From Escherichia phage LF82-41: a DNA stretch of 64,000 bases. Location: sequence record PV660463. One strand, 5' to 3'. Below are positions 1 through 12,032 of this stretch, piece by piece (the first letter of the stretch is position 1; every line of letters starts with the position of its first letter). The position numbers and the translations under genes are program-made. The notes under the pieces were generated by a model. The model saw nothing but the letters and a program-made list of their open reading frames with translations, was not told the origin of the DNA and ran no database searches.

Positions 1-2317
<2,317 letters not shown>

Positions 2318-2344
2318 AAATAAAGCAAATTAAGAGGAATTAAA

Positions 2345-4327
2345 ATGTCACTTCTCTCTCCGGGCGTTGAGCTCAAAGAAACTACCGTACAGAGTACTGT
2401 AGTTAATAACTCCACTGGTACTGCTGCCCTGGCTGGAAAATTCCAATGGGGACCTGCATTCCAGATTAAACAAATCACTGATGAAGTTGCATTAGTTGAT
2501 ATGTTTGGTACTCCTAATACGGATACAGCAGATTATTTCATGTCTGCTATGAACTTCCTTCAATACGGTAATGACCTTCGTGTTGTACGTGCAGTTGATC
2601 GTGATACTGCTAAGAACTCATCTCCTGTAGCAGGCAATATTGAATTCACAATCTCTGCTGCTGGTAGTAACTATGCGGTTGGTGATAAAATTATCGTTAA
2701 GTATTTGACCGAAACTGTTGAAGCAGATGGTTATGTCACTTCAGTTGATGTCGATGGTAAAATTCTTAACGTTTATATCCCAACCGGTAAAATTATTGCT
2801 CGTGCAAAAGAAATTAATGAATATCCTGCGTTGGGTTCTAACTGGACCGCCGAAGTTGCCAGTTCTTCTTCTGGGCTCTCTGGCGTTATTACAATTGGTT
2901 CTATCGTAACCGATTCTGGTATTCTGTTAACCGAAGTTGAAACTTCTGAAGAAGCTATTACTTCTTTAACTTTCCAAGAATCTATTAAAAAATATGGTGT
3001 CCCAGGTGTAGTTGCTCTTTATCCTGGTGAACTTGGCGACCAGCTCGAAATTGAAATCGTATCTAAAGCAGACTATGACAAAGGTGCTTCAGCCCAGTTA
3101 AAAATTTATCCTGATGGTGGTACTCGTGCATCTACTGCTAAAGCAATCTTTGGGTATGGCCCACAAACTGATGACCAATATGCAATTATCGTTCGTCGTA
3201 ACGATGCAGTAGTTCAGAGCGTAATTCTTTCTACTAAACGCGGTGAACGCGATATTTATGGTAGTAATATCTTTATTGATGATTTCTTTGCTAAAGGCGC
3301 AAGCAATTATATTTTCGCTACTGCACAAGGTTGGCCAAAAGGTTTCTCTGGCGTAATCAAACTGGGTGGTGGCTTATCATCTAATGAAACGGTTGACGCC
3401 GGTGATTTAATGGAAGCTTGGGATTTGTTTGCCGACCGCGAATCTGTTAATGCGCAGTTGTTTATTGCCGGTTCTTGTGCAGGTGAATCTTTAGAAGTTG
3501 CTTCTACAGTTCAGAAACATGTTGTAGCAATTGGTGATTCTCGCCAAGATTGCTTGGTTCTTTGCTCACCGCCACGTGCAACTATAGTCGGTATTCCTGT
3601 TAATCGTGCAGTTGATAATCTGGTTGATTGGCGTACTGCATCAGGAACTTACACTGATAATAACTTTAATGTAAGTTCTACTTACGCGGCTATTGACGGT
3701 AACTATAAATATCAATATGACAAATATAATGATGTGAATCGTTGGGTTCCATTAGCTGCTGATATTGCTGGTCTTTGTGCTCGTACAGACAATATTTCTC
3801 AGCCTTGGATGTCTCCTGCCGGTTATAACCGTGGACAAATTCTTAACGTTATTAAGCTTGCAATTGAAACTCGCCAAGCACAACGTGATCGTTTGTATCA
3901 GGAAGCTATTAACCCTGTTACTGGTACCGGTGGTGATGGGTATGTTCTGTATGGTGATAAAACTGCTACTTCCGTTCCTTCACCATTTGACCGTATTAAC
4001 GTTCGTCGTTTGTTCAATATGGTTAAAACGAACATTGGTTCAGCATCTAAATATCGCCTGTTTGAATTGAACAACGCATTTACCCGTTCTTCTTTCCGTA
4101 CAGAGACTTCTCAATATCTACAGGGTATTAAAGCTCTTGGTGGTGTATATAACTTTAAAGTTGTTTGTGATACTACCAATAACACACCAGCGGTTATCGA
4201 CCGTAATGAATTTGTAGCTACTTTCTACTTACAACCTGCGAGATCGATAAATTATATTACGTTGAACTTTGTAGCAACAGCAACGGGTGCCGATTTCGAC
4301 GAACTAATTGGTGCTGTAGGTGGCTAA
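2345..4327 (+). CDS. 18: contractile tail sheath protein (gp18-like)
   Basis: 660 aa, T4 gp18-like sequence and position after gene 17; late promoter and GAGG RBS upstream. Confidence 0.95.
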   Translation: MSLLSPGVELKETTVQSTVVNNSTGTAALAGKFQWGPAFQIKQITDEVALVDMFGTPNTDTADYFMSAMNFLQYGNDLRVVRAVDRDTAKNSSPVAGNIEFTISAAGSNYAVGDKIIVKYLTETVEADGYVTSVDVDGKILNVYIPTGKIIARAKEINEYPALGSNWTAEVASSSSGLSGVITIGSIVTDSGILLTEVETSEEAITSLTFQESIKKYGVPGVVALYPGELGDQLEIEIVSKADYDKGASAQLKIYPDGGTRASTAKAIFGYGPQTDDQYAIIVRRNDAVVQSVILSTKRGERDIYGSNIFIDDFFAKGASNYIFATAQGWPKGFSGVIKLGGGLSSNETVDAGDLMEAWDLFADRESVNAQLFIAGSCAGESLEVASTVQKHVVAIGDSRQDCLVLCSPPRATIVGIPVNRAVDNLVDWRTASGTYTDNNFNVSSTYAAIDGNYKYQYDKYNDVNRWVPLAADIAGLCARTDNISQPWMSPAGYNRGQILNVIKLAIETRQAQRDRLYQEAINPVTGTGGDGYVLYGDKTATSVPSPFDRINVRRLFNMVKTNIGSASKYRLFELNNAFTRSSFRTETSQYLQGIKALGGVYNFKVVCDTTNNTPAVIDRNEFVATFYLQPARSINYITLNFVATATGADFDELIGAVGG

Positions 4328-8752: not shown

Positions 8753-10321
8753 ATGACTACTATCAAAACTAAAGCTCAGCTCGTAGACAAATGGAAAGAA
8801 CTGCTGGAAGGTGAAGGCCTGCCGGAAATCGCTAATAGCAAGCAGGCTATTATCGCTAAAATCTTCGAAAACCAGGAAAAAGATTTCGAAGTATCCCCTG
8901 AATATAAAGACGAGAAAATCGCTCAGGCATTTGGTTCTTTCTTGACCGAAGCTGAAATTGGTGGTGACCATGGTTATAATGCTCAGAACATCGCAGCAGG
9001 TCAAACCTCTGGTGCAGTAACCCAAATTGGGCCAGCAGTTATGGGTATGGTTCGTCGTGCTATTCCTAATCTGATCGCTTTTGATATTTGTGGTGTTCAG
9101 CCTATGAACAGCCCTACCGGTCAGGTATTTGCTCTCCGTGCAGTATATGGTAAAGACCCTATCGCTGCTGGCGCTAAAGAAGCTTTCCATCCGATGTATG
9201 CCCCAGACGCGATGTTCTCTGGTCAGGGTGCTGCTAAGAAATTCCCAGCTCTGGCTGCTGACACTACTACTGTTGTAGGTGATATCTATACTCACTTCTT
9301 CCAAGAAACTGGTACTGTATATCTGCAAGCTTCTGCTGTCGTAACACTTGATTCTGGTGCAACTGATGCAGCTAAATTAGATGCAGAAGTTAAGAAACAA
9401 ATGGAAGCTGGTGCACTGGTAGAAATCGCTGAAGGTATGGCTACTTCTATCGCTGAACTCCAGGAAGGTTTCAACGGTTCTACCGATAACCCATGGAATG
9501 AAATGGGCTTCCGTATCGATAAACAAGTTATCGAAGCTAAATCTCGCCAGCTGAAAGCTGCTTACTCTATCGAATTAGCACAAGACCTCCGTGCAGTACA
9601 CGGTATGGATGCTGATGCTGAACTGAGCGGTATTCTGGCTACAGAAATTATGCTAGAAATCAACCGTGAAGTTGTTGATTGGATTAACTACTCTGCACAG
9701 GTTGGTAAATCTGGTATGACCCTGACTCCGGGTTCTAAAGCTGGCGTATTTGACTTCCAGGACCCGATTGATATCCGTGGTGCTCGTTGGGCCGGTGAAA
9801 GCTTTAAATCTCTGTTGTTCCAGATTGATAAAGAAGCAGTTGAAATTGCTCGTCAAACCGGCCGTGGTGAAGGTAACTTCATTATCGCTTCCCGTAACGT
9901 AGTTAACGTACTGGCTTCAGTTGATACTGGTATTTCTTACGCTGCACAGGGCCTGGCTTCTGGTTTTAATACCGACACTACTAAATCTGTGTTTGCCGGT
10001 GTACTTGGTGGTAAATACCGCGTATACATCGACCAGTATGCTAAACAGGATTACTTCACCGTTGGTTACAAAGGCGCTAACGAAATGGATGCAGGTATCT
10101 ACTATGCTCCTTACGTTGCACTTACCCCACTGCGTGGTTCCGATCCTAAGAACTTCCAGCCGGTAATGGGCTTTAAAACTCGTTACGGTATCGGTGTTAA
10201 CCCGTTTGCTGAAAGTTCCCTGCAGGCTCCAGGTGCTCGCATCCAGTCCGGTATGCCGTCTATCCTGAACAGCCTTGGTAAGAACGCTTACTTTAGACGC
10301 GTCTACGTTAAAGGAATTTAA
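8753..10321 (+). CDS. 23: major capsid protein (gp23-like)
   Basis: 522 aa; strongly T4 gp23-like; late promoter inside 3' end of gene 22. Confidence 0.95.
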   Translation: MTTIKTKAQLVDKWKELLEGEGLPEIANSKQAIIAKIFENQEKDFEVSPEYKDEKIAQAFGSFLTEAEIGGDHGYNAQNIAAGQTSGAVTQIGPAVMGMVRRAIPNLIAFDICGVQPMNSPTGQVFALRAVYGKDPIAAGAKEAFHPMYAPDAMFSGQGAAKKFPALAADTTTVVGDIYTHFFQETGTVYLQASAVVTLDSGATDAAKLDAEVKKQMEAGALVEIAEGMATSIAELQEGFNGSTDNPWNEMGFRIDKQVIEAKSRQLKAAYSIELAQDLRAVHGMDADAELSGILATEIMLEINREVVDWINYSAQVGKSGMTLTPGSKAGVFDFQDPIDIRGARWAGESFKSLLFQIDKEAVEIARQTGRGEGNFIIASRNVVNVLASVDTGISYAAQGLASGFNTDTTKSVFAGVLGGKYRVYIDQYAKQDYFTVGYKGANEMDAGIYYAPYVALTPLRGSDPKNFQPVMGFKTRYGIGVNPFAESSLQAPGARIQSGMPSILNSLGKNAYFRRVYVKGI

Positions 10322-10350
10322 TGCTTTAACGTTAAAATACATAACCTTAT

Positions 10351-10368
10351 GGGAGACTTCGGTCTCCC
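10351..10368. terminator. rho-independent terminator, bidirectional (gene 23 / minus ORF)
   Basis: GGGAGAC-TTCG-GTCTCCC followed by ATTTTTGGTTTT. Confidence 0.75.
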
Positions 10369-10378
10369 ATTTTTGGTT

Positions 10379-10648
10379 TTATTTCTGTGCAATTTCGATG
10401 TAAGTTTTCAAAATATTTTGCCAATTAGGCATACCTTCTTGGACATATGCTGGAGAACCGTCTTTGTTTTTGAATGATGCAAGTTTATCAGTGGCCCAAT
10501 AACCTTTAGCTCGAGCTTCAGAATCAACTTTCATCCATACTTTGTTGAAGGCATTACCATTAACTTTTGCATCATATTTTTCTACTAACTTATCTGCTTC
10601 AGCTTCTAGAACTTTTAAAGTATCTCTTAAGAAACGTGCTTTAGTCAT
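10379..10648 (-). CDS. hypothetical protein, 89 aa, opposite strand between genes 23 and 24
   Basis: ORF-track ORF with ATG start, GGAG RBS and its own early-type promoter; no recognisable motifs. Confidence 0.55.
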   Translation of the reverse strand: MTKARFLRDTLKVLEAEADKLVEKYDAKVNGNAFNKVWMKVDSEARAKGYWATDKLASFKNKDGSPAYVQEGMPNWQNILKTYIEIAQK

Positions 10649-10678
10649 TTTGTTTACTCCTCTGTAGTTGATAAGTCT

Positions 10679-10708
10679 ATAGTATCACATACCAAATACG
10701 TTGTAAAC
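10679..10708 (-). promoter_or_regulatory. early (sigma70-type) promoter GTTTAC-N18-TACTAT, for ORF 10379-10648
   Basis: -35 GTTTAC (10703-10708), -10 TACTAT (10679-10684) preceded by TGA; member of repeated cassette. Confidence 0.55.
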
Positions 10709-10714
10709 AATCTT

Positions 10715-10722
10715 TATAAATA
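10715..10722 (+). promoter_or_regulatory. late promoter TATAAATA (gene 24)
   Basis: Exact TATAAATA 27 nt upstream of ATG. Confidence 0.7.
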
Positions 10723-10748
10723 ATCTATATCACATAAGGAAAAATGCA

Positions 10749-12032
10749 ATGAGTAAAATCCAAAAATTATTGCGTGAATCTACAACGTCTACTAGCAACT
10801 CAATCGGTCGCCCAAATCTCGTTGCTTTGACTCGCGCTACGACTAAATTAATATATTCTGACATTGTGGCAACACAAAGAACTAATCAACCTGTTGCTGC
10901 TTTTTATGGTATTAAATATCTTAACCCAGACAACGAATTAACATTTAAAACTGGTGCTACTTATGCAGGCGAAGCTGGATATGTAGACCGAGAAAAAATT
11001 ACCGAGCTCACAGAAGAATCAAAAGCCACACTAAATAAAGGTGATTTTTTCAAATATAATAATATAGTCTATAAAGTGTTAGAAGATACACCGTTTGCAG
11101 ATATTCAGGAAAGTGATCTAGAATTAGCTCTTCAGATTGCGGTCGTTCATTTAAAGGTACGGTTATTTTCAGATGCAGCGGTAACAAGCAAATTTGAAAG
11201 CTCTGGTAGCGAAATTTCTGATGCAAGATTCCAGATTAATAAATGGCAAACTTCAGTCAAATCTCGTAAACTTAAAACCGGTCTCACGGTTGAATTAGCG
11301 CAAGATTTAGAAGCGAATGGATTTGATGCCCCTAACTTCTTAGAAGATTTGCTTGCTACTGAAATGGCTGATGAAATTAATAAAGATATTCTTCAGTCTT
11401 TAATTACTGTATCGAAACGTTATAAAGTTACTGGAATTACTGACACTGGATTTATTGACTTGAGCTATGCGTCTGCTCCGGAAGCAGGTCGTTCGTTATA
11501 TCGAATGGTGTGTGAAATGGTATCACACATTCAAAAAGAGTCAACTTATACTGCAACGTTTTGCGTAGCTTCAGCTCGTGCAGCTGCTATTCTTGCTGCT
11601 TCGGGTTGGTTAAAACATAAGCCGGAAGATGATAAGTATCTTTCACAAAATGCTTATGGATTCTTGGCAAATGGATTACCTCTTTACTGCGATACCAACA
11701 GTCCGTTAGATTATGTTATTGTGGGTGTTGTAGAAAATATCGGCGAAAAAGAGATTGTAGGGTCCATCTTTTATGCTCCATACACTGAAGGAATGGATTT
11801 AGACGACCCGGAACATGTCGGTGCATTTAAAGTTGTAGTTGACCCAGAAAGCTTGCAACCGTCTATCGGTTTATTGGTTAGATATGCTTTATCAGCAAAT
11901 CCTTACACAGTAGCAAAAGATGAAAAAGAAGCGAGAGTAATTGATGGCGGGGACATGGATAAAATGGCAGGACGTTCGGACTTGTCTGTTTTACTCGGTG
12001 TTAAATTGCCTAAAATTATTATAGATGAATAA
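10749..12032 (+). CDS. 24: capsid vertex protein (gp24-like)
   Basis: 427 aa as in T4 gp24; late promoter upstream. Confidence 0.9.
   Translation: MSKIQKLLRESTTSTSNSIGRPNLVALTRATTKLIYSDIVATQRTNQPVAAFYGIKYLNPDNELTFKTGATYAGEAGYVDREKITELTEESKATLNKGDFFKYNNIVYKVLEDTPFADIQESDLELALQIAVVHLKVRLFSDAAVTSKFESSGSEISDARFQINKWQTSVKSRKLKTGLTVELAQDLEANGFDAPNFLEDLLATEMADEINKDILQSLITVSKRYKVTGITDTGFIDLSYASAPEAGRSLYRMVCEMVSHIQKESTYTATFCVASARAAAILAASGWLKHKPEDDKYLSQNAYGFLANGLPLYCDTNSPLDYVIVGVVENIGEKEIVGSIFYAPYTEGMDLDDPEHVGAFKVVVDPESLQPSIGLLVRYALSANPYTVAKDEKEARVIDGGDMDKMAGRSDLSVLLGVKLPKIIIDE

Follow-up and report, generated by a model that had tools for sequence, protein, structure and literature searches.

The stretch of DNA analyzed here, called the window, comprises 64,000 nucleotides of Escherichia phage LF82-41 (sequence record PV660463), a Mosigvirus, that is, an RB69-like T-even phage. 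Its genes 23 and 24 are separated by a gap of 427 bp, which contains an 89-codon ORF on the minus strand (Table 1). A hairpin lies between the ORF and gene 23; on the other side of the ORF are a Shine-Dalgarno sequence, an early-type promoter and, on the plus strand, the late promoter of gene 24. An initial annotation of this DNA had described a minus-strand ORF of 89 aa between the two capsid genes, with an early-type promoter GTTTAC-N18-TACTAT and a GGAG ribosome-binding site. All three are present, the last within a GAGGAG sequence, and the promoter proved to belong to a class of repeated minus-strand motifs.

Table 1. Features of the 23/24 gap in the window and at corresponding or related loci of other phages.
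Feature	Position	Strand	Remarks
Gene 23, major capsid protein	8753-10321	+	
Hairpin AUGGGAGAC-UUCG-GUCUCCCAU	10349..10370	both	9-bp GC-rich stem; starts 9 nt past the ORF stop codon
89-aa ORF	10379..10648	-	ATG start; stop codon 10381-10379; from the ORF listing
Shine-Dalgarno sequence GAGGAG	10657..10662 (10662-10657)	-	8 nt before the ATG; read from the sequence
Extended -10, TGaTACTAT	10679..10687	-	TACTAT 10684-10679, TG 10687-10686; from the promoter scan
-35, GTTTACA	10702..10708	-	GTTTAC 10708-10703; T4-type early -35
Late promoter TATAAATA of gene 24	10715..10722	+	Bounds the slot; 19 copies in the window, 7.2 expected
Gene 24, vertex protein	10749-12032	+	
Other early-motif starts	13532, 25953, 26764, 32592, 33680, 34123, 37576	-	GTTTAC-N17-19-TANNNT
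Other early-motif starts	39702, 41108, 42291, 49194, 52487, 52640, 63073	-	GTTTAC-N17-19-TANNNT
Swapped cassette	LF82-2 (L026) 3001-3930; AV116 (L027) 1968-2897		Corresponds to window 10383-10656
T4, 23/24 gap			segD, antisense
T4 segD promoter-like site	NC_000866 ~107253-107281 (L028 2454-2482)	-	TTTACA-17-TATTAT with TG
RB51 (T4 relative), S16, Potts1, 23/24 gap			Gap of ~85-95 bp; only terminator and late promoter
Krischvirus G2494 (L015)	3277-3599		Two tiny same-strand ORFs, 45 and 50 aa
Pseudotevenvirus PF-CE2 (L016)	3038-3676		Same-strand homing endonuclease gene
Acinetobacter-phage-type homologues	L004 (ABPH49) 3501-3767; L011 4001-4264		Large non-T4-like genomes, many small same-strand ORFs

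Promoters and hairpin of the 23/24 gap

A simple promoter scan reads the ORF promoter equally as TTTACA-N17-TACTAT with a TG. Within the 64-kb window, the pattern GTTTAC-N17-19-TANNNT occurs 15 times, in all cases (15/15) on the minus strand, compared with 3.4 ± 1.9 times in shuffled sequences, indicating that the ORF promoter represents a genuine class of phage promoter and not a chance match. Several copies have a longer form in common (GTTTACAA...TGTGATACTAT), and the minus-strand copies could be used to map the early transcription units of the window.

Among the aligned T-even lineages, the -35 GTTTACA is found in 6 of 7, with an imperfect GTGTACA in L007, and the extended -10 is kept across lineages as TGnTAnTAT while the spacer has diverged. 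Equally retained are the ribosome-binding site, as GAGGAG or GGAG in Mosigvirus, Dhakavirus and the metagenomic homologues, the late promoter TATAAATA in all aligned lineages and, for the most part, the hairpin core GGGAGACCGAAGTCTCCC, which is identical in the Mosigvirus, Dhakavirus, L007 and L009 lineages. Conservation of such elements amid diverging intervening spacers is the signature of functional regulatory elements. The late promoter of gene 24 and the early promoter of the ORF are arranged back to back, the former inside the A/T-rich upstream region of the latter.

In its -35 GTTTAC and -10 TAnnnT at a spacing of 17-18 nt, its location on the early-gene strand and the Shine-Dalgarno sequence of its ORF, the unit corresponds to a T4-type early (sigma-70) unit, and by analogy with T4 segD the ORF is probably expressed early. 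We propose that host sigma-70 RNA polymerase would start at GTTTACA-N17-TGaTACTAT, near position 10672, right after infection. Leftward transcription would produce a 24-nt leader with GAGGAG followed by the 89-codon ORF, and the resulting RNA of about 0.3 kb would end, or be stabilized, at the gene 23 terminator hairpin. The early promoters would be shut down by the time the late promoters of genes 23 and 24 become active, so that the antisense unit and the heavily transcribed capsid genes would be separated in time and need not collide.

The hairpin has a folding energy of approximately -19 kcal/mol on either strand, with z scores of -4.5 and -5.6. It scored as an intrinsic terminator on the plus strand only, that is, for gene 23, where the tail UUUUUGGUUUU is a canonical U-tract. 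The minus-strand tail, AAGGUUAUGUAUUUU, is U-poor and was not scored as a terminator. Of the bidirectional stop proposed in the initial annotation, the gene 23 terminator and the capacity to fold on both strands thus stand, whereas the minus strand lacks the canonical U-tract. To judge from these sequences, the hairpin is a probable 3' end or stabilizer of the ORF transcript and a two-way stop is plausible; the transcript may also read on, antisense, into gene 23. In VR20, a different hairpin (GGGACC-tcaa-GGGTCCC, approximately 3283-3330) is located 3' of the homologue; on the ORF strand it is flanked by an A-rich stretch on its 5' side and a T-run on its 3' side, and it may act as a two-way terminator.

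A conserved protein under purifying selection

The 801-base stretch around the ORF matched 119 phage records with a coverage of at least 80% and identities of up to 99.4%. A tblastn search with the window protein identified 218 phage records, 119 of them at 90-99% identity. The protein is a member of PHROG 6003 (E 8.9e-44), its residues 1-89 aligning with positions 1-90 of the 90-position profile. Other members of PHROG 6003 are JS98 orf173, VR20 AVV68_gp246 ("similar to VR7 gp190") and RB69ORF188c/189c, all annotated as hypothetical protein and all of the same family, in the same slot and in the same orientation. The window allele is of the Mosigvirus class, 30-37% identical to the Dhakavirus and Gaprivervirus alleles, and does not differ from them in kind.

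The homologues of JS98 (Dhakavirus) and VR20 (Gaprivervirus), 33-37% identical to the window protein, lie antisense between genes 23 and 24, as do those of four metagenomic T-even lineages, which are 69% (P0004), 60% (P0006), 34% (P0019) and 30% (P0016) identical in the family alignment. Together with Mosigvirus, the family thus occupies this position and orientation in at least seven diverged lineages. A scan of IMG/VR loci yielded nine loci, all from Dhakavirus or Gaprivervirus and none from Mosigvirus, and according to the record tallies the family was not found in T4-type records. A separate branch, at approximately 30-38% identity, is carried by Acinetobacter phage ABPH49 and by metagenomic contigs resembling it, away from any capsid gene. 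It follows that the function of the protein is not tied to genes 23 and 24, and that the gene has moved between unrelated groups of phages. Each ABPH49-type copy has GC-rich hairpins on both sides and a conserved CCGCCAGCCAC box ahead of it.

The window protein has a pI of 9.3, is free of cysteine and is predicted to be soluble. All 18 aligned family members are basic (pI 8.0-9.9) and predicted to be soluble, with at most one cysteine each. A basic pI is common in the proteomes of A+T-rich phages and constitutes weak evidence of nucleic-acid binding. The alignment of these 18 sequences, which are 28-97% identical, has nine invariant residues, M1, K3, F6, N30, G31, N32, N35, A45 and Q70, including a polar cluster made up of N30-G31-N32, N35 and Q70. 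Based on this alignment, AlphaFold2 gave a model of the window protein with a pLDDT of 94.1 and a pTM of 0.80, consisting of helices at 3-25 and 31-48, a beta-hairpin at 52-60/66-70 and a further helix at 76-88. In the sister clade of Dhakavirus-type alleles, in which selection was measured, pairwise dN/dS was 0.04-0.14 at dS of up to 0.69 (eight alleles, 28 pairs).

The dN/dS values, the full-length match to PHROG 6003, the confidently predicted fold and the nine invariant residues identify the ORF at 10379-10648 as a real, conserved accessory gene under strong purifying selection. We reject a spurious antisense ORF on account of dN/dS and conservation. A degenerate remnant of an endonuclease is likewise rejected, the protein being devoid of the relevant motifs and its fold compact and confidently predicted.

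These data bear equally on the possibility that the functional product is an RNA. Early antisense read-through into gene 23 would then damp premature capsid expression, and the ORF would be incidental. Read-through is likely given the U-poor tail of the hairpin on the minus strand, and early "anti-late" RNAs have been described for T4. However, a dN/dS of about 0.1 and residues conserved at 30% identity show selection on the protein, whose fold is predicted with high confidence. Moreover, the family also exists away from capsid genes, and in endonuclease-carrying phages 660 extra bases lie between the ORF and gene 23. We thus regard a functional RNA as highly improbable and consider the protein to be the product under selection.

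Searches for a function placed the protein within its own family. The sole Pfam match of the window protein, to DUF4859, had 18.9 bits (E 0.0015), below the Pfam gathering threshold of 22.6 bits, and this sub-threshold match was seen in just 3 of the 18 family members. Pfam gave neither a GIY-YIG nor an HNH match for the 89-aa protein, as the initial annotation had noted from the motifs. A homing endonuclease of the SegD-like class would be expected to have a GIY-YIG or HNH catalytic domain, as well as a DNA-binding domain, in a protein of at least ~200 aa; the window protein, with 89 aa and no catalytic domain, falls outside this class. The NCBIfam search returned noise alone, three divergent family members had no match among the PADLOC anti-phage defence profiles, and a profile search of PDB sequences gave E values of 0.12 or worse. 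Using Foldseek, the best E value against the PDB was 0.5, and the viral structure library yielded the family itself only, namely a 31%-identical member with the same predicted fold (TM 0.88).

A HMMER profile search of 1.8 billion representative proteins recovered the family itself and artefacts only. We rejected P0025 and P0026, repeat proteins of 996 and 1347 aa matched through short repeated low-complexity stretches, and P0023, a chimeric contig-end protein of 160 aa in which a 30-residue Dhakavirus-type fragment is fused to unrelated sequence. According to these sequence and structure searches, the PHROG 6003-type family is small and confined to phages, and its fold is unmatched in the PDB and viral-model libraries. 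The homology and structure prediction called for initially have thus led to PHROG 6003, a family with no assigned function, and to a confident fold with matches within that family. Searches of the literature on RB69ORF188c, orf173 and the Mosigvirus and RB69 transcriptomes found nothing specific, and an Rfam scan of positions 9500-11500 found nothing credible.

Replacement of the gene alongside a SegD-like endonuclease

Comparison of the junction across T4-like genomes showed that the content of the 23/24 gap varies between genera (Table 1), and segD, which the initial annotation placed at this junction in T4, does lie there, in antisense orientation. As a side observation, JS98, VR20, L007 and L009 have two tandem gene 24 paralogues (24a and 24b), compared with one in the window and T4. 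S16 and Potts1 also have two vertex-protein genes, and the JS98 and VR20 records annotate the pairs as gp24-like.

Variation also exists within Mosigvirus. A gene 24 at 95-99% identity to that of the window is present in 149 records. In approximately 120 of these, the gap holds the window-type allele of the ORF, at 90-99% identity, and in approximately 30, among them LF82-2 and AV116, it holds instead a Dhakavirus-type ORF together with a SegD-like endonuclease gene. The slot of LF82-2 and AV116 contains an 88-aa allele 30% identical to the window ORF, followed after 3 nt by a gene for a 219-aa GIY-YIG endonuclease, which is 57% identical to T4 SegD. A search with the 930-bp cassette identified 38 full-length copies, about 30 in Mosigvirus-like records and the remainder in Dhakaviruses, for example IME08 and IME341. 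Another 47 records matched the first 257 nt only and accordingly have the Dhakavirus-type ORF without the endonuclease gene. IME341, which carries the endonuclease gene, and JS98, which does not, share 99.7% identity as far as the final codons of the ORF, positioning the endonuclease gene precisely between the ORF stop codon and the terminator. The cassette has a single promoter-like site, 5' of the ORF, and the endonuclease gene is presumably cotranscribed with the ORF from it.

Alignment with the window located the ends of the replacement. In LF82-2, the sequence changes from Mosigvirus-like to Dhakavirus-like inside the common GAGGAG, whereas in AV116 the upstream breakpoint is farther 5', near the leader or start of gene 24; both switch back within the shared hairpin. 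The differing upstream breakpoints indicate that exchange took place at least twice, with conserved regulatory sequence as the anchor each time. The entire coding sequence was replaced because the alleles have no nucleotide homology, so that repair extends to the next conserved sequence.

Comparative genomics thus suggests the following course of events. In the branch comprising Mosigvirus, Dhakavirus and Gaprivervirus, the PHROG 6003-type family would have occupied the 23/24 gap ancestrally. A SegD-like gene would have inserted 3 nt after the ORF stop codon in some Dhakaviruses and subsequently moved into about one-fifth of the Mosigviruses, dragging along the Dhakavirus-type allele and overwriting the resident one. 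The conserved elements bounding the gap, the hairpin on one side and the ribosome-binding site and early and late promoters on the other, would serve as homology anchors for recombination. The pattern matches homing with co-conversion, and we infer the homing event itself from the comparison of genomes.

Co-conversion of flanking markers is documented for the free-standing T4 endonucleases SegB, SegE, SegF, SegG and MobE (PMC2988022). Shared with these systems are the presence/absence polymorphism of the endonuclease gene, its intergenic insertion beside conserved genes and the carrying along of flanks. Unlike in T4, the tract here is a whole gene swapped for a 30%-identical homologue, and mobility is deduced. 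According to the title of a 2018 paper cited in PMC10448857, T4 SegD was reported not to home.

A closer bond between the two genes can be envisaged, in which the coding sequence of the ORF contains the cleavage site and diverged alleles are thereby immune, or the ORF protein modulates the endonuclease, making the two genes one mobile unit. The endonuclease gene always lies 3 nt 3' of the ORF, without a ribosome-binding site or promoter-like site of its own; in Mosigvirus the record tallies place the Dhakavirus-type allele only alongside the endonuclease gene; and the entire resident coding sequence was overwritten. Full replacement would be expected anyway, however, between alleles that share no nucleotide homology. 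Most carriers of the ORF are without the endonuclease gene (~120 records of Mosigvirus and 47 of the Dhakavirus type), T4 has segD but not the ORF, and the Acinetobacter-phage homologues have no neighboring ORF of endonuclease length. Such a functional tie consequently appears quite unlikely to us.

The initial annotation took the locus for a replaceable insertion slot. Replaceability stands in that the content differs among genera and a cassette was swapped within Mosigvirus; the replacement was a homologue plus an endonuclease gene, though, not an unrelated gene. The notion of a casual or recent insert is contradicted by the occurrence of one family at 30-69% identity, in the same slot and orientation, in at least seven lineages and under purifying selection. 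The ORF belongs to the conserved core at the level of this clade, but not of T4-like phages overall. In a stronger version, the gene would be freely replaceable, recently acquired cargo and the 23/24 gap a generic landing pad. This would accommodate the variety of slot contents among genera (empty, segD, another endonuclease gene, tiny ORFs), the family members in unrelated Acinetobacter-phage-like genomes and the allele replacement that is directly visible. It would also fit the conflict between the ORF tree and its flanks, as seen in L007, whose allele is 60% identical to the window ORF, although the flanking gp23 and gp24 have diverged as far as in Dhakavirus, with its 33%-identical allele. 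Yet the gene has been seen replaced only by a homologue, purifying selection is strong, position and orientation are constant across the diverged T-even lineages, and either one or the other allele appears to be present in all Mosigvirus-type genomes counted. Generic cargo is therefore an unlikely description, and we retain the view of a long-standing resident gene whose alleles are exchanged.

Individual copies have nevertheless been damaged. The RB69 record (AY303349, L005 2437-2710) splits the gene into RB69ORF189c and RB69ORF188c, as a result of a +1 insertion accompanied by clustered mismatches and, farther on, a -1 deletion relative to other Mosigviruses; these frameshifts could be real decay in a laboratory strain or old sequencing errors. 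Truncated copies of 51 aa in mogra (P0007) and 64 aa in 310Ecol104PP (P0022), one of the Mosigvirus type and one of the Dhakavirus type, suggest that the gene is dispensable under some conditions.

T4 segD and the role of the gene

The T4 segD locus resembles that of the window in the gap it occupies, in its antisense orientation, in a homologous promoter-like sequence and in a similar leader. It differs in the presence of the endonuclease gene, which is absent from the window, and in the endonuclease-carrying relatives the segD-like gene is 3' of the ORF and not in place of it. Upstream of T4 segD, the best promoter-like site of the region is aTTTACA-N17-TGaTATTAT (10/12 matches), and the segD leader resembles the leaders of metagenomic alleles of the ORF. 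The T4 arrangement looks like an ORF-plus-segD unit from which the ORF was lost. These similarities suggest that segD is located behind a promoter of the early type that came from the ORF unit, and we regard it as a candidate promoter.

A 2010 review of T4 mobile elements stated that no segD-specific promoter had been found and that vanishingly low transcript was expected (PMC2988022). More recently, time-resolved omics of T4 classified segD as "early RNA, middle protein," and SegD was detected by mass spectrometry (PMC9697503 supplements). An inherited early-type promoter fits this published early segD RNA, which in turn indirectly supports, by experiment, the view that the homologous promoter of the window is active early.

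The gene is small, has an early promoter of its own, is patchily distributed, diverges fast between genera and is occasionally inactivated; in these respects it resembles the small non-essential early genes of T-even phages, which are reportedly described, with their sigma-70 early promoters, in the T4 genome review by Miller et al. of 2003. Most small T-even early genes reside in long early-strand clusters, however, whereas the ORF in the window is isolated between two late structural genes. As accessory genes go, it is ordinary and of a known kind, and it is already annotated as "hypothetical."

By analogy with such genes, the product most likely binds a host or phage macromolecule early, and our best guess is a dispensable factor in host takeover or counter-defence. 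This guess is based on the small size of the protein, which is without catalytic motifs, its patchy distribution, its fast divergence between genera alongside strong constraint within genera, its horizontal spread to unrelated phages and its occasional inactivation. A more specific proposal, which we consider doubtful while granting it some chance, is a counter-defence or takeover effector with a fold not seen before, the two allele classes (30% identity) being alternative specificities shuffled among T-even genera by the SegD-like endonuclease. If this were true, the endonuclease would be a vehicle for exchanging an arms-race gene, with the capsid-gene terminator and promoters as recombination anchors.

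In conclusion, the additional value of the present analysis lies in the resolved history of the locus and in a candidate promoter for T4 segD, none of which is surprising in kind. For annotation, what is labeled "hypothetical protein" in the 23/24 gap of RB69-, JS98- and VR7-like phages is a gene that is under selection and probably expressed early; both RB69 fragments belong to it. The candidate promoter bears on the puzzle left by the 2010 review, the missing promoter of the antisense segD of T4 (PMC2988022). With respect to evolution, the locus is a clear natural case of a distant homologue overwriting an entire gene in company with a free-standing homing endonuclease.
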